A program made the translations under genes and the position numbers. This document shows, in pieces, positions 1 through 16,787 of a stretch of 20,717 bases of DNA. Position 1 is the stretch's first letter, and each line of letters begins with the position of its first letter. Under the pieces are notes generated by a model. It saw only the letters and a program-made list of their open reading frames with translations, did not search any database and was not told where the DNA came from. The stretch lies in the UHGV virus genome UHGV-1961940; one strand, written 5' to 3'. The DNA is from a virus.

Positions 1-285
1 CAGGAAGAAACTGGCAATCTGAGTTTTCGCGCTGGCAATCTGGGATTTTCCATCTTCTAATTTTTTCTTTGCATCTGCAAGTTGTGTTTTCCCGTCTTCC
101 AGTTTCTTCCTGGCATCTTCTAATTGTTTCTTACCATCTTTATATTGTTTCTTTCCGTCCTTAAGTTTCTTTTCACCGTCATCCAGTTCTTTCTTCGCAT
201 CTGCAAGTTTCTCATTGGCTTCTTTTTTGCCGTCTTCCAGTTCTTTCTTTGCATCTGCAAGCTTTTCATTGGCTTCATCCACTAC
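1..285 (-). repeat. Degenerate in-frame tandem repeats encoding a K/E/D/L/G-rich coiled coil
   Basis: The DNA unit gcatctgcaag(t/c)tt..tcattggcttc recurs at about 197-222 and 251-275. tttctttgcatctgcaag recurs at 64-81 and 244-261. ccgtcttccagtt recurs at 92-104 and 230-242. At protein level, EANEKLADAKKEL(E/D)DG occurs twice, followed by KKLxDGK-type heptads. Confidence 0.6.
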
Positions 286-684
286 TTCATCATAACGGAT
301 CTGACAACGTTCTTCCTCGATTCCCTTTACGCGTTCCTGCACTCTTTCTATCAGGCTTTCATAAGCATCCGTATAACTGATCAGATTTTGTGCCCCATGA
401 ACCTGCACATAAATCTGTGTAAATACTTCCTGATCAAAATTCTCCGGGAGTACATAAGCAAACCCGTTAACTTCACCTGAACCAAGAGTTGTATTTCCAC
501 GATTATAAGATATATAAAGAGGGCTCTCACCAATACCTACAACTGTATAATCTACATTCTGCAAAAGCTTGCTGTCCCCGTCCTGCTTCAGTGTAATCTG
601 ATCTCCGACTTCGTAACTGTTATTCTCGGCAAATATATAATCCAGAAATATCTCGCCACTCTTCTCGGGAATTCTTCCTTCCAT
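1..684 (-). CDS. FtsX/MacB-type ABC transporter permease, internal fragment (extracellular domain plus coiled-coil repeats); 5'-truncated and runs off the left edge
   Basis: My own minus-strand translation is open from 795 to 1, with the first ATG at 684. It reads MEGRIPEKSGEIFLDYIFAENNSYEVGDQITL...YTVVGIGESPLYISYNRGNTTLGSGEVNGFAYV...EANEKLADAKKELEDGKKEANEKLADAKKELDDGEKKLKDGKKQ... The G-R-x-P-E-x-x-x-E, VGD-x-I-T and VVG...P pattern is typical of the large extracellular domain of Firmicutes FtsX-like permeases, and LxxG-type heptads follow it. There is no N-terminal TM helix, no start context and no stop in the window. The ORF track omits it because it is incomplete. Confidence 0.7.
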   Translation of the reverse strand, partial: MEGRIPEKSGEIFLDYIFAENNSYEVGDQITLKQDGDSKLLQNVDYTVVGIGESPLYISYNRGNTTLGSGEVNGFAYVLPENFDQEVFTQIYVQVHGAQNLISYTDAYESLIERVQERVKGIEEERCQIRYDEVVDEANEKLADAKKELEDGKKEANEKLADAKKELDDGEKKLKDGKKQYKDGKKQLEDARKKLEDGKTQLADAKKKLEDGKSQIASAKTQIASFFL

Positions 685-710
685 AACAGTGATCTGGTTT
701 ACTGTTTCAT

Positions 711-1196
711 TCACTGATTCCACGGAGCACTTATCGCAAACCTCAACGACATTGATAGTACCATAGTATTTATAAAGAATATAGCCAACGTATCAAACAG
801 GTTAACCTGGTGGTCGTTGATAGTCCCCATGCATTTAGGATCACGGAACATATCAAAATGAATACCGGATAATCTTTCCATTAGCATAAAGTCATAACTG
901 TAGCAGTTATGGCAGTTCAAAGCTGTTGGTGACCAGTCAGAATTGCCTGTAAGCCAACCTTCCAACTCCGAAAAATCTGCTATGCGAACTTCAAAATCTT
1001 TATAAAGAGTTTTCTTTGCCAGAATGAAGTTCTTAGCCTTTTCTATATCCTCCTCGGAGTAGTGTGTGCGGTCATTTAGAGGAAGGAACAGCATAAAACG
1101 GTTCTTATTCAGCTCTTTAAACAGACCGCAGTGATAATAAAGATCTGGGTCTTCCAGCAAACCGGATGACTCAAAATCGAAAGACCACATACTCAT
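711..1196 (-). CDS. Family A (T7 gp5-like) DNA polymerase, N-terminal 3'-5' exonuclease fragment only (truncated; tail of the ORF is probably junction read-through)
   Basis: SFDFESSGLL resembles the Exo I DxE motif (T7 VSDIEANALL). A conserved HCG follows. CHNCYSYDFMLMERL resembles Exo II (T7 FHNGHKYDVPALTKL). NLFDTLAI resembles T7 NCIDTLVL. The ORF stops about 20 codons later, with no Exo III and no polymerase domain. SD is AAGGAG upstream of ATG 1196. It sits directly downstream of the gp4-like gene, as in T7. Confidence 0.6.
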   Translation of the reverse strand: MSMWSFDFESSGLLEDPDLYYHCGLFKELNKNRFMLFLPLNDRTHYSEEDIEKAKNFILAKKTLYKDFEVRIADFSELEGWLTGNSDWSPTALNCHNCYSYDFMLMERLSGIHFDMFRDPKCMGTINDHQVNLFDTLAIFFINTMVLSMSLRFAISAPWNQ

Positions 1197-1215
1197 ATAC
1201 AGTTCTCCTTAAAGG

Positions 1216-1240
1216 GGAGGCGGTTGTATTACCCCTCCCA
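1216..1240 (-). promoter_or_regulatory. Intercistronic hairpin (GGGAGG / CCTCCC, 6-bp stem, 13-nt loop) just upstream of the polymerase SD
   Basis: 1216-1221 GGGAGG pairs with 1235-1240 CCTCCC. On the minus-strand mRNA the hairpin is followed by TTTAAGGAG and then ATG. There is no real U-tract, so I do not call it a terminator. Confidence 0.3.
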
Positions 1241-1254
1241 CTCTTTGTTAAACA

Positions 1255-3333
1255 TTAAAAAGGCGTTTCATCATCCTCAAAACCAGGGACCGGGTCAGAG
1301 GATGGATCATCGTACTGGAGGTCTTCCTGCGTGTCAACAGGCTTAACAGTAGGAGTTACAACCTTATCAGCCACAACCTTGCCCATAGGTGTTTCTACAA
1401 CTGCATGCTCCTGATCCTCAAACATAGCCTGAGGTCTCCAAACAACCTCCCCACCTTCTCCGTCTGTAAACATTTGCATTTCTTTGTCCCAGTACCAATT
1501 ACTGGCATCATGGAACTTACCTGTGTGCGGGTCCATAACCAAAGTGTCAGCAATACCTAGAGTTTTTGCTGGACGGTTTTTAAGACCTACCAGACGGACA
1601 CGTCCACGAGAACGATCCACCATTTCTTCGGCCTCGACACCTATGACTACCCAACTCAACTGTTCAAGCCCAGCCGATCCTCGCAAATTCTCTTTTCGCA
1701 CAGGATACCAGAAAGGTAATGGGTTACCATCCTTGTCCTTAGGGGGCACAATCTCTGTACGTTTGAGGTGAGCGATCACCAAGATAAACACGTTAAACTG
1801 CTTACAAAACGCAGCCAGTTGGGTCATAGCCATGTCCAGTTCTTTTCGCTCATCCTTAACATTAAGCCCTGAAATTACCATGGACAGGTGATCCAGCACA
1901 ATATAACGACAATGGTACAGGCAAACCATTTGCTTAAGCTTGGTAATCAACTCGTCCACTGGAATAGACCCGAAATGTTTGAACACTTTGATTTTTCCAG
2001 CTTTTGCCCATGATTGGTGAATCTCTGCGTGTTCTTGATCAGTTAAAAACTGGCTAGGATCTTCAACAAACTCTTTAACATCAAACCCTAACTGGTTTGC
2101 ATACAAGGAGTTAATTGCTTCCTCTGGGTCCTCCTCAAGATGAATCATGCATAGACGATCATCCTCTTCGTAATCATCAGCCTTTGGACATGTCGGGTCC
2201 ATTAGGTATCTTGCAATACAGTGTTCCAGTTTTTTAGCTACAGTTGTTTTACCGCCTCCTGATGGACCTGTAAGCATTACGAGTGTCCCTTTGTGCAAGC
2301 CTTTTAGCATTTTTTGCAGTTTTGGGAACTCTGCGCTGATATCTACCCCGTTGGAAGTCTTTTTCCGCAAAGATTCGATAGAGAAGTCTTCTAAATCCGA
2401 TACAGCATCCGGTACATACTTAACAGGATGCCGGAACATGTTTACAATATCTTCCAGCTTTTTAGCCTTCAGCATGTCACGGATATCTTTTACACCGTCA
2501 GGATCGTTTACTTCACCAGGGTACTCTACGTGGTAAACGTTATCAGCCATCAAAAATGCTGCGATATTGTGCGTAGCCTCAACACCTTTAATGACGTGTT
2601 TTTGCTTCTCTACCTCGTTAGCTGCATCGTTATCCATTGCCAGCACAACTGTTCCATAGCTACGGATAAACTTCTCATTGTTTGCAAAAGTATCTACTGC
2701 GTTTGCACATCCGCAGTTAATTCCAACAAAAGGTAGGCAGGGTTTTCCTGCCAGATCACCACCGTTGATAACTGCATCGATCCCGTCCTGTACCTCTTTA
2801 GCCCACTGCTTCACCTTTGCCGGGGCTTTAGCGTTGGTGAGAATCCCTTTTACTTGTATCTGATATGCAGCCTGCCATGCTGCAATAACATCACCTTCTC
2901 CCTCGCAAACGTTAATCTGCTTACGGTTGTTGGAAGATGCACACAGCTTTTGACCAAACATCTGGGAGTTAGCCTTTACGATGCCAACAACGGAGAAATG
3001 GCCCCTTTGCTCTTTAGGAATCGTCCAGTCGCGCTTTTTGAAACCGGACAGATTTCCGTAGCGGTCGTAATATGGGAAATATGTTGCAGTGACTGTCACA
3101 CCGTCTTCTTGGGACAATGCTGATCGCACACCAAAATATTGTGCAGCCATCAGACCGATATTTTGTTGTGGGACAGGGACAATTTTAGTATTTTCTAAAA
3201 CAGTCTCTACAGTTTCAACTTCTTTTTCATCACGATAGTCTCGTTTCACACTTCCCCCACTTTTATACTTAGTTGCTTTCGGGTTTGGCTCACCGAAACG
3301 GTTGTATGCAGATGCCATAAATTTACTTCCCAT
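1255..3333 (-). CDS. T7 gp4-like bifunctional primase-helicase (TOPRIM primase core plus DnaB/RecA-type hexameric helicase), lacking the N-terminal zinc-ribbon
   Basis: TOPRIM motifs are VCEGEGDVIAAW and LAMDNDAANE. Walker A is GPSGGGKTT and Walker B is YIVLDHLSMV. AHLKR and LRGSAGLEQLS match T7 CHLKN and LRGSGALRQLS. The acidic C-terminal tail ends in Phe (FEDDETPF), like T7 gp4 (SNDTDF). SD is AAGGAG. Confidence 0.9.
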   Translation of the reverse strand: MGSKFMASAYNRFGEPNPKATKYKSGGSVKRDYRDEKEVETVETVLENTKIVPVPQQNIGLMAAQYFGVRSALSQEDGVTVTATYFPYYDRYGNLSGFKKRDWTIPKEQRGHFSVVGIVKANSQMFGQKLCASSNNRKQINVCEGEGDVIAAWQAAYQIQVKGILTNAKAPAKVKQWAKEVQDGIDAVINGGDLAGKPCLPFVGINCGCANAVDTFANNEKFIRSYGTVVLAMDNDAANEVEKQKHVIKGVEATHNIAAFLMADNVYHVEYPGEVNDPDGVKDIRDMLKAKKLEDIVNMFRHPVKYVPDAVSDLEDFSIESLRKKTSNGVDISAEFPKLQKMLKGLHKGTLVMLTGPSGGGKTTVAKKLEHCIARYLMDPTCPKADDYEEDDRLCMIHLEEDPEEAINSLYANQLGFDVKEFVEDPSQFLTDQEHAEIHQSWAKAGKIKVFKHFGSIPVDELITKLKQMVCLYHCRYIVLDHLSMVISGLNVKDERKELDMAMTQLAAFCKQFNVFILVIAHLKRTEIVPPKDKDGNPLPFWYPVRKENLRGSAGLEQLSWVVIGVEAEEMVDRSRGRVRLVGLKNRPAKTLGIADTLVMDPHTGKFHDASNWYWDKEMQMFTDGEGGEVVWRPQAMFEDQEHAVVETPMGKVVADKVVTPTVKPVDTQEDLQYDDPSSDPVPGFEDDETPF

Positions 3334-3466
3334 TAATTCTGCTCCTTACTACAGGCTCGTTTGCTAAGAATACAGCTTTTGCCCAGCCAATAACTGCACC
3401 ACCAGACCCGTCAAATAGACTCCACACAACACCTTTGTGGTAGTGTTCTTTGTAGATGAATTTCAA
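3323..3466 (-). CDS. Possible 47-aa small protein (TTG start), overlapping the primase-helicase start
   Basis: TAGGAGAC SD sits 7 nt before TTG at 3466. Translation is MKFIYKEHYHKGVVWSLFDGSGGAVIGWAKAVFLANEPVVRSRINGK. The stop overlaps the ATG region of the next gene. It fills an otherwise empty 184-nt gap. It is below the ORF-track length cutoff, and there is no homology evidence. Confidence 0.25.
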   Translation of the reverse strand: MKFIYKEHYHKGVVWSLFDGSGGAVIGWAKAVFLANEPVVRSRINGK

Positions 3467-3484
3467 TTTGCTGTCTCCTAATGC

Positions 3485-3512
3485 AAAAAGCCCCACCCTT
3501 TCGGGCAGGGCC
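3485..3512 (-). terminator. Rho-independent terminator (minus strand)
   Basis: The minus-strand RNA reads GCCCUGCCC-GAAA-GGGUGGGGC followed by UUUUUG. This gives a 9-bp stem including two G-U pairs and a GNRA tetraloop. On the plus-strand transcript those two positions would be A-C mismatches, so the element is strand-specific. It lies right after the stop of the 68-aa gene. Confidence 0.7.
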
Positions 3513-3517
3513 TAGTG

Positions 3518-3724
3518 TTAAACCCGGATACCTATTGTATACTCGGTGGATACCAATGTCAAATCTAAATTTAAAATTTCTTGCATCTCATAATATGCGT
3601 CCAGGGTTAGATACATTTCCCCATCCTTTTCTACATACTTGTCCAAGTGCTTGAGGCATTTCGGATAACTATCAAGTGCAGCTTTCAGGCACTCAAACTC
3701 TGTGCTGTTGATGAATCCTTCCAT
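3518..3724 (-). CDS. Hypothetical protein (68 aa)
   Basis: ORF in the operon orientation, 5 nt after the upstream stop, followed by the terminator. I recognise no motif. Confidence 0.6.
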   Translation of the reverse strand: MEGFINSTEFECLKAALDSYPKCLKHLDKYVEKDGEMYLTLDAYYEMQEILNLDLTLVSTEYTIGIRV

Positions 3725-3729
3725 CTTGG

Positions 3730-3996
3730 CTACCCGTTCTTAATGATAGCACTGTAGTGAGATTTAGCTTCCTGAATGCAATGGGTCCAAGCATCAACCT
3801 TCTCTTCGAAAAGTCCAAAGAACTTCTTTTTGGTGAGCTTCAGATTCTTTAAGTGCTTAAGCACTCGGTTGCCGATTACAGCCACATCACGAAACTTAAG
3901 AATCACTTTGTCGATATCCTCGCGACCTATTTTCACAAAACAGGCCTTACACATTTCAGGGGAGGAATAACCAACTTTCCACATAAAATCTGACAT
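3730..3996 (-). CDS. Hypothetical protein (88 aa)
   Basis: Strong SD (AAGGAGAAGGTGG) before the ATG. Contains CKAC and HC pairs, but no assignable domain. Confidence 0.7.
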   Translation of the reverse strand: MSDFMWKVGYSSPEMCKACFVKIGREDIDKVILKFRDVAVIGNRVLKHLKNLKLTKKKFFGLFEEKVDAWTHCIQEAKSHYSAIIKNG

Positions 3997-4008
3997 ACCA
4001 CCTTCTCC

Positions 4009-4311
4009 TTATTCCTTAAAAGCTATGATATCATAGGAACTTGCAGATGATTCTGGTGAAGAATGACTCCAGTCCAGGTCATCAGAATAGTCAGCGTACT
4101 GTGCGCCACTACGCAGTTTGTATTTTACCCACTTACCTGGTGCAGGGTTTTCACCACCTTCCCATACTTCCCAGCCTTCTGGCAGGCCGTCCTGAGCGTA
4201 GTCATCCACCTCACTAATGATCTTAGGGTTTGGCACCAAGATCCCCGCAGGCTCTTCCTTCCGGATAAGTGTCCACACAGCGTATGTGTCTGAGCAGGCG
4301 CATGATAGCAA
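4009..4311 (-). CDS. Hypothetical protein (about 100 aa; start uncertain, TTG)
   Basis: Long ORF in the operon orientation with a W-rich motif (GWEVWEGGENPAPGKWV...LDWSH...DIIAFK). There is no internal Met. The only in-frame start is TTG at 4311, with a weak SD. Confidence 0.55.
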   Translation of the reverse strand: MLSCACSDTYAVWTLIRKEEPAGILVPNPKIISEVDDYAQDGLPEGWEVWEGGENPAPGKWVKYKLRSGAQYADYSDDLDWSHSSPESSASSYDIIAFKE

Positions 4312-4402
4312 AGTATATCCACTATTCAGAACTTCTGCAAGCTCTTTTCAGCATCTTCCAATTTGGCTAAGTGGTATTGGATAATCTTCACACCTGTAAT
4401 CA

Positions 4403-4708
4403 TCAGAAACCTCCCACTTCTTCAGCAAATGCAGCTGCTGTCGTCGCTGCATCCAGATAGGACTCTAGTTCACGGGCTGCACGTTTGTAAATTGAGTGGC
4501 GCATATCGTTTGGCAGTTGGTGGGAGTCCACCTCTTCACCGTTGTGGTAAACATGCACATCGGTGATTTGTCTAAATCCGTAACAGTCAACATCAGAATC
4601 CCGGCACTCCGGATCTGGCAACTGAACAACTGCCTGAGCTTCCACAGTAAACATATCGTCAAGTTCGAAATCGATTTCAAAAGTGTATGGTTTATAACGT
4701 TTCATCAT
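4403..4708 (-). CDS. Hypothetical protein (101 aa)
   Basis: ORF in the operon orientation starting 13 nt after the methyltransferase stop. No motif recognised. Confidence 0.65.
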   Translation of the reverse strand: MMKRYKPYTFEIDFELDDMFTVEAQAVVQLPDPECRDSDVDCYGFRQITDVHVYHNGEEVDSHQLPNDMRHSIYKRAARELESYLDAATTAAAFAEEVGGF

Positions 4709-4721
4709 TTGATTGTACTCT

Positions 4722-6047
4722 TTATTGATCAGAATTATCTTTCGTAATTAAGGTCTGGGTAAGTTTGTAATAGCGGAAGCCACCGCCACCTTGCCAGCTT
4801 GCAGACTTAGAAATACCACCTTGATCTTCACCATCAATCACTTTTTGCAAGCGAGGGATAATATGGGTATGACAATGATCACCCAGTTCGATCAAGATCC
4901 AACGTCTTTTCATCTTGTGGGCTACAGCAGCAGTAGTTCCCGAACCGCCGAATGAATCCAATACCAAATCACCTTCTCGCGTACACATTTCGAGAATCCG
5001 CTTCAAAAGCGCTTCTGGTTTTTTTCCATTTTTGAAACTAACGCCGCCTTCATTTGCTATTCCATTCCAACTAATGTCTGTCCAAACATCAGTTATTAGT
5101 TCCGCAGGTTGCATCTCACCGTCAATTTCCAAAAGCCTGTTGGAGTAAAAGACCATTTGCCTACCATTTGCGATATAAAATCCTTCAACATCCTCATTCG
5201 GATGTACATAAACCTTATCCCTATCTTTCTTTGACTTCTCGATAGTTTCTTTTCTCTTTATTTTAGCGCCACCACCAATTGCAACAGATTGAAATACACG
5301 TTCTGCATTATCAATTGCGAATTGTGCTAATTCATCATCGAATGTATCAGGCAGTTTTTTCTTGGCTTCTTTTGCATCTTTATAGCCATTGGCCTTTGCA
5401 AACGCATCGGCAATACCGCACCACGTCCAATTTTTATAATGGTCATCCGGGTTTAATAGGTATTTGTTATATCCTGTATCATACCCTTTAGGTATATAGA
5501 TTTTGTTAAGCGGTTTCTGGGTGCGATCTTTTGCATATACAAGCAAAAAGTTTGCTGTGGAGAAAACTGTGGCTCCTGTTGCCTTAAATCCCGAAGGGGA
5601 ATTTGTGGTCATCGATATGGTATTTAACTGATTTGCACGACCAAAAATCTCGTCCATCAAAACTTTTAAATACGCCATTTCGCAATCATCTAAGTGAACG
5701 AATATTACCCCATCATCACTTAGAAGATTACGAATTATTTCTAACCTATCCCTCATTAAGCCCAGCCAAATGGAATGCTCCAGGCTATCATCGTAATGCT
5801 CAAAAGCCCTCCCGGTATTGAATGGTGGGTCTATGTAAACACACTTCACTTTGCCTGCATACTCTTGCTCTAGCGCCTTCAATGCTAATAAGTTATCTCC
5901 AAAAATCAGTTTATTATCAAAAATATCGTTTTCGGTCACTTTCTGGCTGTGGTAAGATTTGCTAGAATCTTCTAACAAAATGTGTGGCTCTAACTTTTTG
6001 CGCTCGTTTTTACCTATCCAGGTAAGTTCTAATTTGGTTTTGCTCAT
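4722..6047 (-). CDS. Orphan DNA methyltransferase, beta-class N6-adenine/N4-cytosine family, type III Mod-like
   Basis: Motif IV VYIDPPFNTG comes first, followed by the Mod-like block HSIWLGLMRDRLEIIRNLLSDDGVIFVHLDDCEMAYLKVLMDEIFG. Motif I LDSFGGSGTTAAVA is near the C-terminus, so the order is IV then I (beta class). SD is AAGGAGAG. There is no Res/endonuclease partner in the window. Confidence 0.9.
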   Translation of the reverse strand: MSKTKLELTWIGKNERKKLEPHILLEDSSKSYHSQKVTENDIFDNKLIFGDNLLALKALEQEYAGKVKCVYIDPPFNTGRAFEHYDDSLEHSIWLGLMRDRLEIIRNLLSDDGVIFVHLDDCEMAYLKVLMDEIFGRANQLNTISMTTNSPSGFKATGATVFSTANFLLVYAKDRTQKPLNKIYIPKGYDTGYNKYLLNPDDHYKNWTWCGIADAFAKANGYKDAKEAKKKLPDTFDDELAQFAIDNAERVFQSVAIGGGAKIKRKETIEKSKKDRDKVYVHPNEDVEGFYIANGRQMVFYSNRLLEIDGEMQPAELITDVWTDISWNGIANEGGVSFKNGKKPEALLKRILEMCTREGDLVLDSFGGSGTTAAVAHKMKRRWILIELGDHCHTHIIPRLQKVIDGEDQGGISKSASWQGGGGFRYYKLTQTLITKDNSDQ

Positions 6048-6074
6048 CGTTTGGTGCTCTCCTTAGTTTTTTGT

Positions 6075-6091
6075 GGGGAGGAGGCCTCCCC
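6075..6091 (-). promoter_or_regulatory. Intercistronic GC hairpin (GGGGAGG-AGG-CCTCCCC) upstream of the methyltransferase SD
   Basis: 7-bp perfect stem with a 3-nt loop, lying between the stop of the 113-aa gene and the AAGGAGAG SD. On the minus strand it is followed by ACAAAAAAC, so there is no U-tract. On the plus strand it is followed by TTTAT. Confidence 0.35.
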
Positions 6092-6108
6092 TTTATACTC
6101 ACATCTTA

Positions 6109-6450
6109 CTACTCAAGGTCTTCAGAGTCAAGCTCAAAAAGAATCAAACTGTGCATGCCTGCAGATAGATTAACACACCCTGCAACAATAAGGGTCTGAT
6201 AGTAAGGTTCAGCACCCTCAATGTCTTCGTTAAAATCCACAACAAGGTAGTCACCTTTGTTAAAGGTGTATTTGTCCGATGTAAACGCAAAACCTGCCCA
6301 GTCCCCTACTGCAGGGTCTTTATCAGTCACCTTTGTTAACAGTAGATCTTTTTCACGGGATCTTTTAGTAAAATCGTGAATCACAACATCCTTCTCTTCA
6401 GGAGTTGGATTGCCACACACGTAGTTAACTATATTTCTCCACAAACTCAT
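6109..6450 (-). CDS. Hypothetical protein (113 aa from ATG 6450; the track ORF extends to a TTG at 6492)
   Basis: ATG 6450 is preceded by GAGGGGA. It would overlap the helicase 3' end by 26 nt. The longer TTG start has no SD. No motif recognised. Confidence 0.6.
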   Translation of the reverse strand: MSLWRNIVNYVCGNPTPEEKDVVIHDFTKRSREKDLLLTKVTDKDPAVGDWAGFAFTSDKYTFNKGDYLVVDFNEDIEGAEPYYQTLIVAGCVNLSAGMHSLILFELDSEDLE

Positions 6451-7816
6451 ACGTCCCCTCTTCGGCTCTGGTTTCAAAATCTTTCCTGACAATTTTGTCT
6501 AAGTCAGGGAATGTTGTATTGTAAAACTCTACGACTCGCGGGTCAACAATAATGTCAACTTCTCTTAGTGGACGCAACAAGTTTATTCCTTGTATTGTCT
6601 TAACCCGACTCAAAGCAACATACGTCATCCCAGGAGAGAAAGCTCCGTTCTTTCCAAGGTCCAGGTTGTAACAATCTAGCGTAAGTCCTTGACTTTTATG
6701 AGATGTTACGGCATACCCAGATTTCAGAGGAAGTTGCCTGTATGACCCAATCACTACCCTCTCTATAAACTTCTCCATCTTCCTTTCTGCAATGTTGTAT
6801 CTCTGAGATGGCTTATACTCGTTATTTTCCCACAACCTCTGCTCTATGTCAACCTGTGTTCCATCTTCAAGCTCTACCACCACCGCCTTGTTCTTAAATT
6901 TAACAATTGTGGCACGTGTTCCGTTAACATAATAAGGTACTTTGTGCGTCGGGTCAACATCGTTGGCGGTTATCATAACTTTCATGCCAATTTTCAACTT
7001 CATCTCCTGCTCAACTGGCAGGGTGGAGGGAAACTTACCCTTCATTTCACCAGTGTATACCTTCTCTGGGGCGTTGATGGCATCATAGAACCTTCTGTTC
7101 ACTTCCTCTGCTTGTTTGTTGGTGGCGCAAATTGTGAGAGCGTCTGTTGGTACACCGCCTTTGTAACAGCGAGCATTAAGTTCTGCTACAACCTCTTTTA
7201 TGCGACGACCCTCACGAACACAGTTGAGCATTGTGGCAAATCGAATAGACTCCTGTCGGAACTGGTCTATTAGGGCTATGTTGTGAAGGTCCAGCTCTTT
7301 CCAAGATTCGGTATAGCAACATAGGTCTGTGTGGTAGAAGTTGAAGTAGGCCTCCTTCTCCATAGAAGAGACAACAGGAGGTGCCTGGTAAAAATCGCCA
7401 AACAATATGACCTGTATGCCTCCGAAAGGTTTGTCATTTTTTCGAAGGAAGCGGAGTTTTCTATCCATCTCTATAAACTTATCAGCACGGATCATAGAGA
7501 TTTCATCGATAATTAGGATGGTAAATGCCTTGCTTTTCAAAGGCTTTGCTGTTTTTGCCCTTATTGCAGTCCAGTCAGACTCCATGCTCACACCTGCTGC
7601 AAGATCGAAGGTTCGGTGTGCTGTTGCTCCATTAACGTTTAAAGCGGCTACCCCTGTCGGGGCAACCGTTATGCAAGAGTCTCCATACATTGACTGGATC
7701 ATGTTGATGAGGTACGTCTTCCCACAACCTGCGGGTCCTGAAACGAAGACATTCTCCCCACTCATGATTGCAACAAGGGCAGCATCTGTGCCTACATCAT
7801 ACTGCCCTTTTTCCAT
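6425..7816 (-). CDS. PIF1/RecD-like SF1B DNA helicase
   Basis: Walker A is GPAGCGKTY and Walker B is LIIDEISMI. The PIF1-type motif III is FGDFYQAPPV. YAVTSHKSQGLTLD and YVALSRV are the C-terminal SF1B motifs. The start is coupled to the rIIB-like stop (TAATG) with a GAGGAGG SD. Confidence 0.9.
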   Translation of the reverse strand: MEKGQYDVGTDAALVAIMSGENVFVSGPAGCGKTYLINMIQSMYGDSCITVAPTGVAALNVNGATAHRTFDLAAGVSMESDWTAIRAKTAKPLKSKAFTILIIDEISMIRADKFIEMDRKLRFLRKNDKPFGGIQVILFGDFYQAPPVVSSMEKEAYFNFYHTDLCCYTESWKELDLHNIALIDQFRQESIRFATMLNCVREGRRIKEVVAELNARCYKGGVPTDALTICATNKQAEEVNRRFYDAINAPEKVYTGEMKGKFPSTLPVEQEMKLKIGMKVMITANDVDPTHKVPYYVNGTRATIVKFKNKAVVVELEDGTQVDIEQRLWENNEYKPSQRYNIAERKMEKFIERVVIGSYRQLPLKSGYAVTSHKSQGLTLDCYNLDLGKNGAFSPGMTYVALSRVKTIQGINLLRPLREVDIIVDPRVVEFYNTTFPDLDKIVRKDFETRAEEGTYEFVEKYS

Positions 7817-9021
7817 TACGCCTCCTCGTAGATAATGTCGATGATGTTACCATCACGGTCAACTACGTATTCAATCGGATCGCCATCTTTGCGTGATTCC
7901 GGTGCTGCTACGATTTCGTAGCGGCATGCACGGCACTTAGCACTGTTGTGTTGGTATGGCACACTAACCACATCCGCAGGGTCAACCATAACCATCATTA
8001 CAGTGCCATAGCCCGCTGCATACTCTTTGCTGGCGCAGTGCAGGCCATAAGAACACGCAGCTTCCGGATCATCTTCTACAAAGTTACGAGGCATGGACAC
8101 AAAAGCACCCTGGTATTGTGGAACTTTACCGCTGTGCCAATCCACCCACCTGCTCCCGTTAAACTGAACCCCCTTATAGCAAATGATTCGACCATCTTCT
8201 GCAACCTGGATGTCATTAGCCTGCATGAAATCGTAGAGCATGTTCACAGATTTTGCAGACGGGTTGCGTAGCAGACGGACAAGGAATTTAACATATCGGT
8301 CGTCCAGTGTTCCATCTACATAATCTTCCTCAATTTTCTTTGCAATGGTGGATCGCATCTCTACACCGTAGTAGTAGAGCTTACCATCTTTCATGATCAG
8401 GTTGTCTGCAAGTGTGGTGAACTCATTCTTGCGTTCCAGCCAGACAAGGATTTCACCAATTGCCTCATCATATTCCTGAACAGAAATATGGTCGAAGACT
8501 TTCTGGTAAACTTCCTCACTTTCGCTGCGGCGAATTTCAAAAATGCCTTCGTTGCAGGTGATCTGGAGGAGTTCCCCGCAAATAACTACCAAAGGCTCGA
8601 TGCTTCGAGACTGTTGCTGAGACACACTGCTCACTACTTCCAGCACCGGATCTTTGACTTCTACTAAAGGTTCTTCTGACTTGATTGCTACCCCAGTGAA
8701 CCCCACACCGTGAACAACACACAGTGGGTATACCACGCCCCAACGTTTAACGGAACCTTCACCTGAATCTAAGATCATGGCGTACTTACCGTTGTCTTCC
8801 AGTCCGTAGCGGAATAAACGGGCCTCTTCGCGGGTTTCAAAATCCTCACGGGTATAGCAGACACTGTCTCGGTCAGGATCAAACAGCTCTGGGGCACCTA
8901 CTGCCAGTGTCCATGTTGTAGTACCTTTCTCAATAGCACATGTGAAACCCTTCTTCTCAAGTTCTGCACGGCGGTCGCGTGCTTCTTTACGAGTTTTGAA
9001 ATGTTCGTAGATGAAAATCAT
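7816..9021 (-). CDS. rIIB: rIIB-like protein with an N-terminal extension
   Basis: The C-terminal 200 aa align by eye with T4 rIIB. FLVRLLRNPSAKSVNMLYDFMQANDIQVAEDGRIICYKGV matches FLENLLENPSQKAVSRLFDFLVANDIEITEDGYFYAWKVV. SYGLHCASKEY...VDPADVVSVP...AKCRACRYEIV matches SRGLHVCSKSY...VHPRDVVSIP...AKMRTCQYEVV. It lies immediately downstream of the rIIA-like gene. Confidence 0.8.
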   Translation of the reverse strand: MIFIYEHFKTRKEARDRRAELEKKGFTCAIEKGTTTWTLAVGAPELFDPDRDSVCYTREDFETREEARLFRYGLEDNGKYAMILDSGEGSVKRWGVVYPLCVVHGVGFTGVAIKSEEPLVEVKDPVLEVVSSVSQQQSRSIEPLVVICGELLQITCNEGIFEIRRSESEEVYQKVFDHISVQEYDEAIGEILVWLERKNEFTTLADNLIMKDGKLYYYGVEMRSTIAKKIEEDYVDGTLDDRYVKFLVRLLRNPSAKSVNMLYDFMQANDIQVAEDGRIICYKGVQFNGSRWVDWHSGKVPQYQGAFVSMPRNFVEDDPEAACSYGLHCASKEYAAGYGTVMMVMVDPADVVSVPYQHNSAKCRACRYEIVAAPESRKDGDPIEYVVDRDGNIIDIIYEEA

Positions 9022-9031
9022 AGCTGTCTCC

Positions 9032-11014
9032 TTATTTGGTGTTATTCTTTGCGTCGATCAGTTCACGGTATTCAATCATAGCAGGAGTGTCCCAATATTT
9101 CAAGCCCACATGCTTCAAAAGTGGATATTTCTTTTCCAATCTTGCAATATAGGCCTTCCCGCACTTGACTCGGTTGGCGATTAAGATTTTGGCACGATGA
9201 TTTAGCTCACTGTGCTTCCACGCGGTGTTACCTTCCCACTTGTGGAAATGTGGCCGATAATTTCCAAAATCTTGCATGGGGATAATTTTCCCTAATTGTC
9301 TATACAGGCTGTCATATGAAGTTTCATTTGCTGCGCGAGTCAGTAAGAATTTCCAAGCATCCTCTTTCAACAAATGTTCCACATTCTTCTCTGTAACATA
9401 CTGGCAATCAGGATCAGTCCAAAGCAGACGAGATTCTGATACCAAGTACAGATCTTCACCTTCAGGAATCTGGAGTGCAGCACGCACACGGTCATAATTT
9501 TGCTGGTAGATGTTACTCAGCTGTCCCAGCCAACAACTTCCACGTTGGATATCACCCTCATAAGGAATGCAGTGCTTAATCTTCTTGAACTCTGCCTTAG
9601 TAATACGTTCACGACGGAAGTAACCATCCTTCTCAAGCTTTTTAACCCAATAACCTGGCTCGTAATGAGTTTTTGTTTCACCTTTCTTCGCAGGTCGGCG
9701 AGGGAGCTCTGATAACAATTTGACAGTATCTGCAAAGAACGGATGGTGTGCCGCCTCTTTAAACTCTTTCACCAGATCCGTGTTCCGGCAATAGAAAACG
9801 TTGCGTCCGGTGATTTCGCTTAAGTAGTTACACTTATTTCGGTTATATTTACCATCTCCGTCGTTAAATACAAGGTATACACCTCGTAAGAACTCCGACT
9901 TTCCGTAACGAGCATAGCCTATGCGGCCTTTATTTAAGCCGCCAGCGAAAATTTCACAATCGCCTAAGTCGCCAAGCCCTGTTTCTTCCCAACGGTTCCA
10001 CATAAAGTTTTTGCCGAAGATGTGTCCGAACACTCCACTATTCTTCATCATTTCACGTGCTTCTGCGGAGGTTTTTGCCGTCTCCAGTTCTGCAATAACT
10101 TCTGCCCCGCGAAGACGTATACCTTCTTTGACAAAGGCCTCCAGGCGATCCTGGAATCCACCGTCGTCATGGCCCTCTATGGTCCATTCACGCCCAGGGT
10201 TAATATTGCAATCCCCAATAGGAATTTCCACGCAGATTGCAGGGTAATCGGTCAATGTCTCCAGGAACTTGGAGCGGTAAGGTTGGTGACCCATCACAAC
10301 ACGGCTCTCATCAGAACTGGTATAACCTTTCAGGATGGTCATTTTCCAGCCATCCTTCTCGTAATGATACTGTGCCTCAACCTTGTCACCTTCTAACATC
10401 TTACTGGTCATAGGATCGGTGACGATGAACGGAAACTTCGCATAGCGTAAGCACGATGCAATAGCAGTGCAATATTTCAGGACATGCTCTTTCTTAACAT
10501 GGAACTGAACTTTTACCCCGTTGTGCTCTTCAGTCTTCCGCTCACGGATCTTGGTAACGTTTGGGATACCCTGATCCAAGAACAATAGATATGTGCTTTC
10601 AACACCATTGTGCACACTGATCACATCGAAAGTGTCCACCATACTGAACGGAGCCTTTGAACCAACACCTTTATTACCTACCAGAGCGTTGCTGTTGCGC
10701 TTGGTTGACTCCCCGAGATTCATGAAAGTGTTGCGGACCATCTCTTCTGACATGCCCAATCCAACGTCCTGCACAAAGAAGTATGGTTCAAGGTCTGTAG
10801 GAGAGTGAATGATGATCGGTACATCACCCCGTCCAGACTCAACATGGGAGTCCACAGCATTGAAGATTGGTTCACGGCAGCTTGCCAGCACCTTATCTTC
10901 GTAAATCCCTTTAATGATTAGCCCAAAAGTCTCTTTGTTCAGAGAAATTGAGCCCCTGGTGACCTCCATATTTCCGGTCAGCACTGCTTTAGTTTCATTA
11001 CTGTTTACAATCAT
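9032..11014 (-). CDS. rIIA: rIIA-like protein (N-terminal GHKL/HATPase-like fold)
   Basis: The N-terminus parallels T4 rIIA. MIVNSNETKAVLTGN matches MIITTEKETILGNG. REPIFNAVDSH matches RELITNMIDAH. FVQDVGLGMS matches VCRDFGPGMS. VGNKGVGSKAPFSMVDTFDVISVHNG matches [26 protein letters not shown]. Its size (660 aa) and its position upstream of the rIIB-like gene also fit. Confidence 0.85.
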   Translation of the reverse strand: MIVNSNETKAVLTGNMEVTRGSISLNKETFGLIIKGIYEDKVLASCREPIFNAVDSHVESGRGDVPIIIHSPTDLEPYFFVQDVGLGMSEEMVRNTFMNLGESTKRNSNALVGNKGVGSKAPFSMVDTFDVISVHNGVESTYLLFLDQGIPNVTKIRERKTEEHNGVKVQFHVKKEHVLKYCTAIASCLRYAKFPFIVTDPMTSKMLEGDKVEAQYHYEKDGWKMTILKGYTSSDESRVVMGHQPYRSKFLETLTDYPAICVEIPIGDCNINPGREWTIEGHDDGGFQDRLEAFVKEGIRLRGAEVIAELETAKTSAEAREMMKNSGVFGHIFGKNFMWNRWEETGLGDLGDCEIFAGGLNKGRIGYARYGKSEFLRGVYLVFNDGDGKYNRNKCNYLSEITGRNVFYCRNTDLVKEFKEAAHHPFFADTVKLLSELPRRPAKKGETKTHYEPGYWVKKLEKDGYFRRERITKAEFKKIKHCIPYEGDIQRGSCWLGQLSNIYQQNYDRVRAALQIPEGEDLYLVSESRLLWTDPDCQYVTEKNVEHLLKEDAWKFLLTRAANETSYDSLYRQLGKIIPMQDFGNYRPHFHKWEGNTAWKHSELNHRAKILIANRVKCGKAYIARLEKKYPLLKHVGLKYWDTPAMIEYRELIDAKNNTK

Positions 11015-11511
11015 TTATTGCGCTCCTTGTAGTAGATATGGCTCCCGAATTGAGTTGTCCTCTGCATCTTTTTTGCCCATTTCGGTCGTACTTTGGTTGT
11101 ATGGTAGTGTGTTGCTCCACCTGTTATGTCCATAGCCATGTATGCAACATGGTTGTTATTATAGACCTTTATAAGCATCTTTGCAAGACTTTTAGCGTGA
11201 TCCCATGAATCTTTTTCTGTCACCTTAAAAGTTTTGCCGTGGTTTGTCCACGAAAACTGGTTAGGTTGGTAGACAATCTTTCTTATAGTGTCTGGGTATT
11301 TAGGGTGGGATTTCCTGTTTAGTGTGGCAAACCCAGATGCCAGCATACCCATCGTGCCATCTCCTCTAGCTTCCCTGTAGATATTGCATGCCAGAATGTT
11401 TTCCTTAGTATCTGATGGCTTGCAAGTATGATATACTTTTTGTTTTGGTGCTGCAACAACAGGCAGCGATAAAAGTGCGCTCAAAATAATAGCAAAGATC
11501 TTAATTTTCAC
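11011..11511 (-). CDS. SleB/CwlJ-family cell-wall hydrolase with N-terminal signal peptide
   Basis: GTG start. The N-terminus MKIKIFAIILSALLSLPVVAAP looks like a signal peptide. The hydrolase_2-like core is ACNIYREARGD...GMLASGFATLNR...YQPNQFSW...GGATHYHT...FGSHIYY. Its stop overlaps the rIIA-like ATG (ATGA). Confidence 0.8.
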   Translation of the reverse strand: MKIKIFAIILSALLSLPVVAAPKQKVYHTCKPSDTKENILACNIYREARGDGTMGMLASGFATLNRKSHPKYPDTIRKIVYQPNQFSWTNHGKTFKVTEKDSWDHAKSLAKMLIKVYNNNHVAYMAMDITGGATHYHTTKVRPKWAKKMQRTTQFGSHIYYKERNK

Positions 11512-11520
11512 AATGACTCC

Positions 11521-11547
11521 AAATAGAAAATCCCCGCCGAAGCGGGG
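11521..11547 (-). terminator. Rho-independent terminator (minus strand)
   Basis: The minus-strand RNA reads CCCCGC-UUCG-GCGGGG followed by AUUUUCUAUUU. This is a 6-bp GC stem with a UUCG tetraloop and a U-rich tail, 14 nt after the stop of the 126-aa gene. Confidence 0.75.
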
Positions 11548-11560
11548 GAGGTCTTAGAAA

Positions 11561-11941
11561 TTAATCGTAGTGTGCCAAAATCTCTCCATCGTTGCAAGTT
11601 CCCTCTACAAAGTTATGAAGATTCATGCACTCATCTTGATAGAAGAATTTACCGCTTTTCAGCCGTAGGCCAAACAACTCCGCATCTCCACGATGGCAAG
11701 CCTCTACAAGTTCATAGATTTCATACGGCAACTCTCCGTCGTCATGGAAGAATCCAGCCTTATCGTTGACATAAATGAAGAAATAATCACTGCTATCGCA
11801 AGCGTCCAATATTTTAAACCAGACTTCATCTACATCTTTTTCTCGGATATCGATCACGCAAGTGGAACTGCATTCGTACTCCTTCTCCGGCTCCTCGGTC
11901 AATACCACCAGGTAGTTTCCCCGCTTACCTACTTTAGCCAT
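11561..11941 (-). CDS. Hypothetical protein (126 aa from ATG 11941)
   Basis: ATG 11941 is preceded by AAGGGGGG, directly after the AAA+ gene stop. The longer track ORF (start 11989) would overlap the AAA+ gene. No motif recognised. Confidence 0.65.
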   Translation of the reverse strand: MAKVGKRGNYLVVLTEEPEKEYECSSTCVIDIREKDVDEVWFKILDACDSSDYFFIYVNDKAGFFHDDGELPYEIYELVEACHRGDAELFGLRLKSGKFFYQDECMNLHNFVEGTCNDGEILAHYD

Positions 11942-11951
11942 ACAACCCCCC

Positions 11952-13136
11952 TTAAGCTTTAGCCAAAATGGCGCTAAACTCTTCACCAAACTCTTTTACA
12001 ATCTTCATCAGGTTTGGGTATGCTTTGATCAGCTGAGCAACAATCTTGTCACGCCCTTTACCGATAAGCAAGGCATTTCCTAAGGCATTAGGTTTCATCA
12101 TCGCCATAAAGACTGAGAATACAAAATCTCGGTTCTCGTCCTTGAAGTTTTCCCAAAGGAAATCGAGGAAGTTTGCCACGCAGCTGACAAGATCTTCGTC
12201 TGAGATACTTGCATTTTCCATCATATTGCGAATAGCGATACAACCTTCAGATCCAAGAATCCACAAAATGTCTGGCTGCTTAGGACCTACGTATTCTTTG
12301 CAGCCACCTGCCATAATCCGACCGATTTCCGGTAAATTACGTTTCTTGGTGTGGTAAGTCCAGATCTCTACCGCTGCAGTGTGACCAATAGCACCTTGTA
12401 GAAGAACACGGGCCATAGCGTCAGAAATAATACCGCTGTCAAAATCGTGCAAGATGTCAGATGCAGCAACCCAAGATCGTGGTGTGGCAAAAGATGGACA
12501 ATTAATCTCAGCCATAGCCTCATAATTATCAATAGCTGATGGAACTCTTTTCAGATACCCAATTACAGAGGAGTGAACCCCGTTGAGGAATGCGTAGTCC
12601 TCAATAAACACCTCTGCATTGCTTGTAACCTCTACAATGATAAAACGGTTAGCCAGAGGGGCTTCGAGCGCCGAAAGAACCGCACCATCTGTAGAACGGT
12701 TACCCGCAGCCACAAAAACAGAACCCTTAGGGAATGCATAGGTGCCGCACTTGTGGTCAAGCATAATTTGCATTGCAACCTTTTGCAGGTAGTTATCTGC
12801 ATGAGTGAGCTCATCCAGAAAGATAATTCCGCTCCAGTCAGGATCCGCAGGCCAAAATTCTGGAATTGCAAACACTGTACGTGTAGTTCCATCCGCTTCT
12901 ACAGGGATAGGTAGCCCAGATAAGTCGGCAGGATCTTTATCTGACAGTCGCACGTCAACAAGGTTGTCATCTCGCTCACCGAACATATTATCAGCGATCT
13001 GCTTCATCACCTGGCTTTTACCCACACCCATTGGTCCCAAAATTAGGACAGATCGGCTATGACGTTGGGCAAACTGAATAATAGCTGGCAACTCACGGAC
13101 AGTGATTTGACCACTTTCGAATACGTTTCTTGACAT
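11952..13136 (-). CDS. MoxR/CobS-type AAA+ ATPase (AAA_5-like)
   Basis: Walker A is ILGPMGVGKSQ and Walker B is IIFLDELTHA. The sensor-1 region is VFVAAGNRSTDG, followed by LANRF. This is a single AAA module with a helical C-terminal half. The start is coupled to the upstream stop (TAATG). Confidence 0.85.
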   Translation of the reverse strand: MSRNVFESGQITVRELPAIIQFAQRHSRSVLILGPMGVGKSQVMKQIADNMFGERDDNLVDVRLSDKDPADLSGLPIPVEADGTTRTVFAIPEFWPADPDWSGIIFLDELTHADNYLQKVAMQIMLDHKCGTYAFPKGSVFVAAGNRSTDGAVLSALEAPLANRFIIVEVTSNAEVFIEDYAFLNGVHSSVIGYLKRVPSAIDNYEAMAEINCPSFATPRSWVAASDILHDFDSGIISDAMARVLLQGAIGHTAAVEIWTYHTKKRNLPEIGRIMAGGCKEYVGPKQPDILWILGSEGCIAIRNMMENASISDEDLVSCVANFLDFLWENFKDENRDFVFSVFMAMMKPNALGNALLIGKGRDKIVAQLIKAYPNLMKIVKEFGEEFSAILAKA

Positions 13137-13405
13137 TAGTAAAAGTCCTCTACTTGTGTGTAAGTGTTTTCAAAGTTTTCCAAAACAGATATCACATCGA
13201 ATCTGTCAATATCATACGTGACTCTCCAGTTGTACGCAACCCTTTCTGCTGTTGCCTCTTCTGGCGCTAGTCGTCTGCTGGCATAAAAGAGTGTTGGAGT
13301 ACACTTTCTTGCTTGCCCTCTAACTTTCCCATAATAATATCTGTGAATATCTTTGTCAAAATTTAACTCTTTTTCTGCACGAAGTTCATATTGCTGGTAT
13401 AACAT
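13136..13405 (-). CDS. Hypothetical protein (89 aa)
   Basis: SD is AAGGAG. The stop overlaps the AAA+ start. Confidence 0.65.
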   Translation of the reverse strand: MLYQQYELRAEKELNFDKDIHRYYYGKVRGQARKCTPTLFYASRRLAPEEATAERVAYNWRVTYDIDRFDVISVLENFENTYTQVEDFY

Positions 13406-13449
13406 CTCTACTACTCCTTAAGCAGCATCCTTGCCGCCATTCCTGCCCA

Positions 13450-13830
13450 CTAAAATGCAGTCCGAATCCAGACAAGGTTCTTATCTGCCCAATCATAGAG
13501 GCAAGTCATTGCACTATTGAATTGCTCACACGGAGGATAATCTTCTTCCATCTGGCGCATAGCAGAGCCTTGTGGGTAAAGCTCCCGTGCTGCAAACCAC
13601 GCATCGTAGTCATCAACGGTGTCGAAGTAGTATACAACATCCTCTAACTCAGGATCGAACTTTGAACTATCAGGATCCAGTTGTTCAGGGAACTTGGAGC
13701 GTAACTTGCCAGCCACAATACTTGCCAACTCGCTAACATGCTTATTGTCCCACTCCACTAGCTTCCCGTCTTCAGTGATGCGTCCTAACCACTGATCATG
13801 AAGGTCAACTGTTGTCTTCCACTGAGCCAT
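13450..13830 (-). CDS. Hypothetical acidic protein (126 aa)
   Basis: SD is GAGGTGG. It lies 2 nt downstream of the previous stop. No motif recognised. Confidence 0.7.
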   Translation of the reverse strand: MAQWKTTVDLHDQWLGRITEDGKLVEWDNKHVSELASIVAGKLRSKFPEQLDPDSSKFDPELEDVVYYFDTVDDYDAWFAARELYPQGSAMRQMEEDYPPCEQFNSAMTCLYDWADKNLVWIRTAF

Positions 13831-13832
13831 TA

Positions 13833-14090
13833 TCAGTCCACCTCTTCTTCTCGTTGTAGTTCAAGATACCCGTAGGTCTGGACATCTTGAAGGGTGTGGA
13901 ACTCCCCCTCTGCCGCTAAGGCACGAACAACTTGGCACAAAACCTTATGAGGAACTTCATCCAAACCTAGATTCAGTGCAGGAAACACCTTATCTAAGTC
14001 AACAAAATAAACGAACTGTAGCTCACCAGCTTCAAAAGGTGTATCTTCAATAAACATCTTCTCGGCATTAGTCAAGATCTGCACTTTCAT
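13833..14090 (-). CDS. Hypothetical strongly acidic protein (85 aa)
   Basis: SD is GAGGAGG. TAATG coupling to the upstream gene. Confidence 0.7.
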   Translation of the reverse strand: MKVQILTNAEKMFIEDTPFEAGELQFVYFVDLDKVFPALNLGLDEVPHKVLCQVVRALAAEGEFHTLQDVQTYGYLELQREEEVD

Positions 14091-14446
14091 TATTCTACCT
14101 CCTCTTCTTTTTCTTCGGCATTAGTTTCATGGCTACCCCACTCGGGAGTTTCCACCTCGATAGTAAACTCACGCACTACACGGTAATTGCCCATGAAGCG
14201 CTCTACTTCGTCAAGGCTTATGGAGAGGCCATTGGCAACCAGGTCTGCAGCACCCTCTTCTACCAGGTAGTCCAGATTGGCTTCCAGAGCCTCAGGTTCA
14301 AACCCTGTCAATGCAATCAGATAACCTTCCCCTTCATCAGGGAGGACAATACAGCCCAATTGATTTTCTTTAAAAAGGCAGTGACCATCATTATTGATTG
14401 GGTGTTCATTGCAGTAAATAGCTGCACGATAAGTAACTTTAGACAT
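14090..14446 (-). CDS. Hypothetical acidic protein (118 aa from ATG 14446); its first 8 codons lie in the left copy of the 29-bp inverted repeat
   Basis: TAAGGAGACCTTACCGATG combines the stop of the upstream gene, an AAGGAG SD and an ATG at 14446 (MSKVTYRAAIYCNE...). The track start at 14467 lies inside the upstream gene and has no SD. Confidence 0.7.
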   Translation of the reverse strand: MSKVTYRAAIYCNEHPINNDGHCLFKENQLGCIVLPDEGEGYLIALTGFEPEALEANLDYLVEEGAADLVANGLSISLDEVERFMGNYRVVREFTIEVETPEWGSHETNAEEKEEEVE

Positions 14447-14451
14447 CGGTA
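14423..14451 (-). repeat. Left copy of the perfect 29-bp inverted repeat
   Basis: The plus strand reads TGCACGATAAGTAACTTTAGACATCGGTA, the exact reverse complement of 16285-16313. Flanking bases differ on both sides. Confidence 0.9.
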
Positions 14452-14459
14452 AGGTCTCC

Positions 14460-14738
14460 TTAGGCAATTGTCATTTTACATTCTTGAAATTTTAACACAA
14501 GACGGTAATTGTGTCTAGTGTCTAAAAAGATTTTTTCAACCATCAGGCACACGGTATAACCGTCCATCTTGTTGACAACAAAATCTCCAGGATGAGGGAG
14601 GATGTCTCCCGGATTGGGGAAACATAGTCCACTCAGAAAGGCATCGTCAGTGGTGGACTTAATAGATTTCCACACACTGTCTGCCTGAACATGTTCACCG
14701 ACGTAATATACATTACCACATGCCTTCATCATAGTCAA
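14460..14738 (-). CDS. Hypothetical protein (92 aa)
   Basis: ATGA overlap with the 299-aa gene and a GAGGG SD. No motif recognised. Confidence 0.65.
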   Translation of the reverse strand: MTMMKACGNVYYVGEHVQADSVWKSIKSTTDDAFLSGLCFPNPGDILPHPGDFVVNKMDGYTVCLMVEKIFLDTRHNYRLVLKFQECKMTIA

Positions 14739-15634
14739 ACCCTCGCATAAATTAAACTTGTATCAGTATACTTCTTTAATGGGTAAATATCCTGTCCATA
14801 GATGCAATCATTAAACACCTCATCTACCCAAAGGCTACACTTATATCCCATCATTTCTAAAACACCCATCTCTTCTTCGGTAAACTTATCACCGCTCTTG
14901 CAAGATGTCAATACCTCATTCTGAACTCTTGCTACCTCGAAGCGGTTATTGGCAATATCGCTATTGGCGATCAAATACTCACCTAGAGGGTGTGCGGCAT
15001 TAAAGATGCACAGTGGACGGCTGACGTAATAGTCTCCAGGTGTATAAAAATTGTTGAGGTCTTTCACTAGAACATTCTTATCAGTCACTTCATTTATAAC
15101 ATCATGCATATCGCACATCTTTATATGTTTGAGGATTCCATCCCCCATCACAAAATAAAAACTTGCTGAGACACTTTCGGCATAGATCTTACTAGATCCG
15201 TTGTAGTTGTATTTTACTCGGATGCTAACGGGGGTTTTTCCTGTCGCGTTAGCCATCATCCAAAGAAATGGCAGCTCATACTTCTCCTCTGAGGAAACAA
15301 AAGGTGAGGTAGCCAGAGATCGAAAACCTCCAGAGAAGTTGAAAGTTACAGAACCGCTCCGGCGGTATGATACCGCGTATTCTACTTTTATATCGACATA
15401 CCCATTGGAATAGGTGTGTCCTTCATTATCTAAATATGTCCACTTATCAGACCCAGATACCAATCTACGCTCAATAACCTTCATCACTATAGGAATTAAT
15501 GGGTTGGTACAAACCGCTTTTGAAGTAGCTTTATCATCTAAAGCCTCGTAAATTGCAGAAAGGATGTCCCCAGCTGAAAGATTGGTTGTTATGTCCTGTT
15601 TCCACCGCGTACTAAAACTGTTAAGATTTGCCAT
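14735..15634 (-). CDS. Hypothetical protein (299 aa), first gene of the leftward operon, AT-rich
   Basis: AGGAG SD 9 nt before ATG 15634, downstream of the near-consensus promoter. Spot counts of single 60-nt lines give about 32-33% G+C, against about 47-52% in lines from neighbouring genes. No motif recognised. Confidence 0.7.
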   Translation of the reverse strand: MANLNSFSTRWKQDITTNLSAGDILSAIYEALDDKATSKAVCTNPLIPIVMKVIERRLVSGSDKWTYLDNEGHTYSNGYVDIKVEYAVSYRRSGSVTFNFSGGFRSLATSPFVSSEEKYELPFLWMMANATGKTPVSIRVKYNYNGSSKIYAESVSASFYFVMGDGILKHIKMCDMHDVINEVTDKNVLVKDLNNFYTPGDYYVSRPLCIFNAAHPLGEYLIANSDIANNRFEVARVQNEVLTSCKSGDKFTEEEMGVLEMMGYKCSLWVDEVFNDCIYGQDIYPLKKYTDTSLIYARV

Positions 15635-15674
15635 AAGTAAGTGCTCCTATGTTAGTTTTCTTTCGAATGGGTGC

Positions 15675-15703
15675 ACTATATTGTGGAGTTAGAGTAAAGT
15701 CAA
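15675..15703 (-). promoter_or_regulatory. Leftward sigma-70/SigA-type promoter
   Basis: The minus strand reads TTGACT (15703-15698), a 17-nt spacer, then TATAGT (15680-15675). This places a start site about 35 nt upstream of ATG 15634, so the SD lies in the leader. Confidence 0.55.
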
Positions 15704-15716
15704 CACGTTTTTGATG

Positions 15717-15745
15717 TTGACATCTGTTGAGACAATTGATACGAT
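15717..15745 (+). promoter_or_regulatory. Rightward sigma-70/SigA-type promoter with extended -10
   Basis: TTGACA (15717-15722), a 17-nt spacer, then TGaTACGAT (TG at 15737-15738, -10 at 15740-15745). Its -35 lies 13 nt from the -35 of the leftward promoter. Confidence 0.45.
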
Positions 15746-15776
15746 TTCTTCACTTACAGAGCACGAGAGACGACTC

Positions 15777-16754: not shown

Positions 16755-16758
16755 TGAC

Positions 16759-16775
16759 AGGGGCCAATGGCCCCT
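16759..16775 (+). promoter_or_regulatory. GC hairpin between the 347-aa ORF and the VWA gene (possible leaky terminator or attenuator)
   Basis: AGGGGCC-AAT-GGCCCCT forms a 7-bp stem, followed by TCTGGAGTTTTAATG. The first in-frame ATG (16767) lies in the loop. The U-tract is interrupted. Confidence 0.5.
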
Positions 16776-16787
16776 TCTGGAGTTTTA

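Follow-up and report, generated by a model that had tools for sequence, protein, structure and literature searches.

A coliphage polymerase gene broken off against foreign bacterial DNA in a gut virus contig: a probable technical chimera

At the left end of the viral sequence UHGV-1961940, a DNA polymerase gene that breaks off after its first exonuclease motifs lies next to a bacterial ABC permease gene that is itself incomplete, and the question raised by this locus is whether the junction records a biological event or was made outside any organism. The window, by which we mean the whole stretch of 20,717 nucleotides that was analysed, carries all its large genes near the left end on the minus strand. 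A sequence-only reading had offered three explanations, namely deletion in a decaying prophage, an assembly or binning chimera of phage and host, and a real rearrangement. It had also proposed separate homology searches on each side to find intact versions of the two genes; these searches did find an intact polymerase and an intact permease, and they placed the breakpoints exactly. Base composition fails to tell the parts apart, the GC content being about 0.40-0.41 on either side of the junction.

Three apparent sources of DNA in the window

Window 10-723 (minus strand) is a fragment of the gene for an FtsX-like ABC permease of an uncultured Blautia sp. (WP_294650899.1, 1258 aa). Blautia is a Gram-positive anaerobe. 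The fragment differs by one base in 714 from positions 5001-5714 of L002, a contig of an uncultured Blautia sp. MAG from a Hadza gut metagenome, which was identified at 99% protein identity by a scan of species-representative genomes. The intact gene occupies L002 4689-8465, is annotated as 'FtsX-like permease family protein', contains MacB_PCD and FtsX domains and lies downstream of an ABC ATPase gene. In its cluster at 90% identity, 88 members have the intact length of 1258 aa, and those listed are on contigs that reach 414 kb. The suggestion that the left-hand product might instead belong to a phage protein family is thus contradicted by this intact reference, which is a genuine bacterial permease. 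In describing an FtsX/MacB-type permease that is 5'-truncated, with neither a start nor the N-terminal TM region, the sequence-only reading was accurate: only codons 105-342 are in the window, which take in some of the MacB-like extracellular domain and run into the first part of the coiled coil, and the start codon, N-terminal TM helix and FtsX domain are absent from the fragment. On searching the translated fragment against gut-metagenome proteins, MacB_PCD-containing matches of at most 81% identity were obtained, and DNA searches with window 1-800 gave no match among phage records, among plasmids or among 5,426 complete E. coli genomes. It may be noted that, in a minus-strand frame adjacent to that of the polymerase ORF, a stop at 793-795 is followed by open sequence from 792 through to base 1, which encodes a MacB_PCD-like domain and a K/E-rich coiled coil. 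The earlier account of a permease frame running from 795 is correct in that the frame stays open to the left edge, but it is permease-derived only from 723; within it, 724-792 is made up of antisense Bacteroidales DNA and phage DNA.

As the Blautia homology ends at 723 and the phage homology begins at 781, 57 bases are left over in between. These bases (724-780, plus strand) were traced by a 40-mer scan, BLAST and alignment to a gene for a DUF4301 protein in an uncultured gut bacterium of the Bacteroidales; they represent approximately codons 269-287 of the 510 in that gene. For a 40-mer of the piece, exact matches are present in three contigs from human-gut metagenomes (L039-L041, of up to 209 kb), and viral contigs give none. 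Window 720-791 is identical to the gene at 71 of 72 positions (98.6%, BLAST), the lone mismatch, at position 785, carrying the phage base. The source gene encodes 510 aa with a PF14134 (DUF4301) match at E 6e-210 and adjoins TPR and PIG-L genes; named relatives of the protein belong to Bacteroidales and Muribaculaceae. Its coding sense is the plus strand of the window, opposite to the permease and polymerase on either side. Two other identities for 724-780, a divergent permease allele and an intron or intein of the polymerase, were dropped once the piece was found exactly in the Bacteroidales DUF4301 gene. The range of 712-795 previously given for the breakpoint is therefore correct, but it holds two breakpoints (720-723 and 781-784) around a third-organism piece that had been overlooked.

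The remainder of the window, 781-20711 (19.9 kb), is an internal block of an rV5-like E. coli myovirus, as established by megablast and by colinearity with Escherichia phage ime (MN850576). In a megablast of the whole window against phage records, 133 records were matched, mostly Escherichia rV5-like myoviruses (Vequintavirus), with phage ime as the best match of 781-20711 at 99.0%; in 81 Vequintavirus records, one matched region alone spans at least 80% of the query. The 99% identity holds over the 19.9 kb in two colinear blocks, which correspond, in the same gene order, to positions 71950-92510 of phage ime and are thus internal to a 137-kb genome. Genes of the block include a primase/helicase, an N6 methylase, a Dda-like helicase, rIIB, rIIA, a SleB-like hydrolase, a MoxR-like ATPase and metallopeptidase/VWA genes. 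The hosts of the matched rV5-like phages are E. coli, and the phage group is virulent. The absence of an integrase, transposase or att-like feature, as remarked earlier, is borne out: none of the ten largest ORFs of the window has an integrase or transposase domain, none is annotated in the colinear phage ime, and only overlaps of 4 bases are found at the junctions.

Two side observations concern this phage group. The matches include sixteen records under the name 'Campylobacter phage' (host Campylobacter jejuni), which share about 98% identity with the E. coli rV5-like phages and are approximately 135 to 140 kb in length among the matches listed; their host labels may merit a check. The Dda-like helicase ORF of the window (minus strand; ORFs 6109-6492 and 6425-7816) has 463 aa as against 456 aa called in related genomes, and it overlaps the next ORF by 68 bases. 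The discrepancy in length is probably a matter of start-codon choice only.

Each segment thus matches its own unrelated reference almost exactly and up to a sharp breakpoint (Blautia 713 of 714 bases, Bacteroidales 71 of 72, phage 99%). Judged by these matches, the window is composed of DNA from three unrelated sources of the gut community: a virulent E. coli rV5-like phage, an uncultured Bacteroidales bacterium and an uncultured Blautia sp.

The interrupted polymerase gene

The truncated polymerase ORF with its Exo I and Exo II-like motifs is present where the sequence-only reading had seen it. Alignment to phage genomes shows that window 781-1196 (minus strand) holds the first 138-139 codons of a Vequintavirus family-A DNA polymerase gene, that is, the Exo I and Exo II region, after which the gene stops without a polymerase domain. 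The ORF as such extends over 711-1196 (minus strand) and is chimeric: its 161 aa begin with MSMWSFDFESSGL, the first 138 residues are the N-terminus of Vequintavirus DNA polymerases, and the final residues, about 22 in number (IFFINTMVLSMSLRFAISAPWNQ), are read-through into the foreign Bacteroidales and Blautia DNA. With tblastn, residues 1-142 match the polymerases of about 300 phage records, and the identity is 97.9% in about 100 records annotated as DNA polymerase. Profile searches are weak on this ORF, with no match in Pfam and only a weak DNA-polymerase match in PHROGs, so that a direct comparison with phage genomes is required. A look-up of the exact 161-aa product found no record.

The missing part amounts to the remaining 670-1110 codons (about 85% of the gene, and more in the longer alleles), and no polymerase domain is found elsewhere in the window. 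In phage ime the polymerase ORF has 809 codons. Related genomes carry an uninterrupted ORF of 809-1248 aa that passes through the breakpoint reading ...FDTLAMSRILWPD... in 8 of the 8 examined. A protein identical to the primase/helicase of the window is listed in 210 collection blocks, 128 of which have contigs of 50-200 kb; downstream of this gene, the polymerase ORF is open straight through residue 138/139 at each of the 8 places examined.

The Vequintavirus polymerase gene is nevertheless naturally polymorphic (L001 797-4416; L042, L043 and L046 from 12138). Besides an uninterrupted form of 925 aa, there is a split form in which an HNH endonuclease cassette lies at residue 808/809 (809 + 118 aa), and a third form with an insert of 323 aa after residue 671 (671/672) that ends in CYSGDTQIL ... 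VAVCGN|C. Pfam fails to recognise this insert; from the end motifs only, it may be suggested to be intein-like. A naturally split polymerase with the same junction in independent genomes, which had been considered earlier, is not what we find, since the natural interruptions are at 671/672 and 808/809 and the junction of the window is absent from the collections. No genome with the same split and the remainder of the gene nearby was found, the gene being intact at 138/139 in all eight related genomes.

How the junctions may have arisen

The two internal junctions have the same form. At junction 1 (720-723), a three-way alignment shows a microhomology of 4 bases, CCAC, common to the Blautia and Bacteroidales sequences. 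At junction 2 (781-784), the 4 bases ATAG are common by alignment to the Bacteroidales piece and to the phage allele CATAGCCAACGT, which is the reading of several phage alleles; over the wider stretch ATAG-CAACGT the two agree at 10 of 11 positions. The chance of a 4-base overlap in a random join is about 1% (0.011), and such an overlap is seen at 2 of 2 junctions. Exact-match scans of the viral, genome and metagenome collections gave no match for a 41-mer across the Bacteroidales-phage junction.

Short tails that may be inverted joins are found at both termini, each the reverse complement of sequence lying 100-270 bases inside. The left tail (1-9) departs from Blautia colinearity, window 1-14 being the exact reverse complement of 99-112, and the right tail (20712-20717) departs from phage colinearity, window 20709-20717 being the reverse complement of 20449-20457. 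The overlap at the fold-back is 5 bases (ACTGG) on the left and 3 bases (TGC) on the right. As background, a fraction of 2.4e-4 of the 14-mers in the window have a reverse-complement copy at most 150 bases away, and for nearby inverted 9-mer matches the fraction is 5.5e-3. The tails look like fold-backs, and because the breakpoints lie only 6-9 bases from both ends, this suggests that the window is an entire contig or molecule.

We consider it very probable that window 1-20717 is a technical chimera in which the junction is genuine in the sequence and is an artefact rather than biology, and likewise that the three DNAs were in all likelihood joined outside any cell. A biological event is disfavoured because the three unrelated pieces are near-exact, the overlaps are of 4 bases, the middle piece is tiny and the tails are inverted. 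Template switching during amplification is the most likely mechanism; the enzymatic step is inferred, the candidates being MDA, PCR and the uptake of a chimeric read in assembly. The displaced 3' end of a nascent strand would re-anneal to another template through a few complementary bases and be extended on it to give a chimeric molecule, and this molecule or its reads would then be assembled into one contig; switching of the PCR type, or use of a chimeric read by the assembler, would give a similar picture. In chimeras made by phi29 MDA, displaced 3' ends re-prime at 2-21 complementary bases (Lasken & Stockwell 2007, PMC1855051), and CCAC and ATAG fall within this range. Weighed against amplification are the rarity, in MDA, of joins between molecules relative to intramolecular ones (PMC1855051) and the shortness of the terminal tails, just 9 and 6 bases.

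A further breakpoint inside the phage block is best described separately. At 3373-3389 (minus strand), comparison with reference phages shows the junction of an in-frame deletion of 621 bases in a Dcm-like C5 cytosine methyltransferase gene, flanked by imperfect 16-base direct repeats AGCTTTTGCCCAG(C/T)CA. The remnant, at about 3323-3496 on the minus strand, has a product of 57 aa for which the exact look-up found no record, and the full 254-aa gene is kept in all the listed reference phages and in 8 of the 8 metagenomic or isolate genomes examined. It could be a genuine deletion variant, or else another template switch, in direct orientation.

The earlier explanation of an assembly or binning chimera of phage and host is right in proposing a technical chimera, but the sources are three and not two, and binning is not at fault, all the parts being on one contig. 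We also give a slim chance to a purely computational misassembly, whereby shared k-mers or errors in the graph led the assembler to join three genuine contigs, with no chimeric molecule behind them. Three gut-associated sources could co-occur in one metagenome, and the sequence at the left end of the window encodes a coiled coil with internal repeats, a kind of region in which assembly graphs are prone to break. Yet only 4 bases are common at each junction, far under any usable k, and the 57-base piece of a third genome demands reads that physically span both junctions.

A still slimmer chance goes to ligation, that is, fragments of the three genomes joined end to end in library construction or cloning. 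Multi-fragment concatemers are a known library artefact, and shearing could have produced so short a middle fragment. Blunt joins predict zero overlap, however, while 4 bases are found at both junctions (chance about 0.011 squared), and the inverted tails at both ends would be left unaccounted for.

We regard a real illegitimate (microhomology-mediated) recombination in vivo, giving a defective phage genome or a bacterial chromosome with the three pieces, as highly improbable. Illegitimate recombination in cells, too, typically shows microhomology of 4 bases. But Blautia, Bacteroidales and coliphage DNA would all be needed within one cell, which is very unlikely and tells equally against the real rearrangement proposed earlier; the phage group is virulent on E. 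coli, the left 800 bases are in no E. coli genome or plasmid searched, the product lacks about 85% of its polymerase gene, and the junction was found nowhere else in the collections scanned. The particular version in which, within a gut E. coli cell, microhomology-mediated end joining added Blautia and Bacteroidales DNA of extracellular or co-resident origin to a defective rV5-like genome is no less improbable. The decaying prophage, in which a deletion removed the missing polymerase sequence together with the prophage end and a portion of the host's permease gene, has in its favour two truncated genes that adjoin with no mobile-element signature, but its probability is practically negligible given that the block is internal to a 137-kb virulent coliphage genome at 99% identity with no integrase found, that the presumed host gene comes from Blautia, not from the E. 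coli host, and has no match in 5,426 E. coli genomes, that a Bacteroidales fragment lies between the two parts, and that all three parts are near-identical to free-standing references, which leaves no time for decay.

On this favoured reading of a technical chimera, the truncated polymerase and the truncated permease are not genes of any organism, and as a laboratory or assembly chimera the junction says nothing on prophage decay. The contig is not usable as evidence for a prophage, and neither can it be cited to link a coliphage with Blautia, to argue that an ABC transporter was transferred horizontally or to propose an exonuclease gene that stands alone. The chief worth of the finding lies in quality control: a 57-base third-party insert, 4-base overlaps and inverted tails together form a compact fingerprint by which chimeras in gut metagenome and virome assemblies can be flagged.

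Comparison with known systems

Four known systems resemble this locus to different extents. One is the replication module of Vequintavirus coliphages, for example that of phage ime, from which the window is set apart by the polymerase gene cut after codon 138/139 and by the 621-base deletion in the Dcm-like methylase gene. The HNH-split and intein-like polymerase genes come from the same phage group and also have an interrupted polymerase gene. In them the downstream part is present and the site is conserved, whereas in the window the break is at 138/139, bacterial DNA follows and the remainder of the gene is gone. A prophage-host junction (attL/attR) likewise places phage DNA next to a bacterial chromosomal gene. 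In contrast to such a junction, the window has no integrase and no att repeat other than overlaps of 4 bases, its phage is of the virulent type, its bacterial gene comes from a phylum other than that of the phage host, and DNA of a third organism lies in between. The fourth system is the phi29 MDA chimera, of which 85% are inversions with segments mostly less than 10 kb apart (PMC1855051). The internal junctions of the window differ from this majority in linking different genomes, the rarer class, and an MDA step is hypothetical here. The likeness extends to several features at once, as the segments are otherwise exact, the overlaps lie within 2-21 bases and there would be several switches per molecule; the termini, with tails of just 9 and 6 bases, may likewise be inverted joins to sequence nearby (less than 10 kb away).
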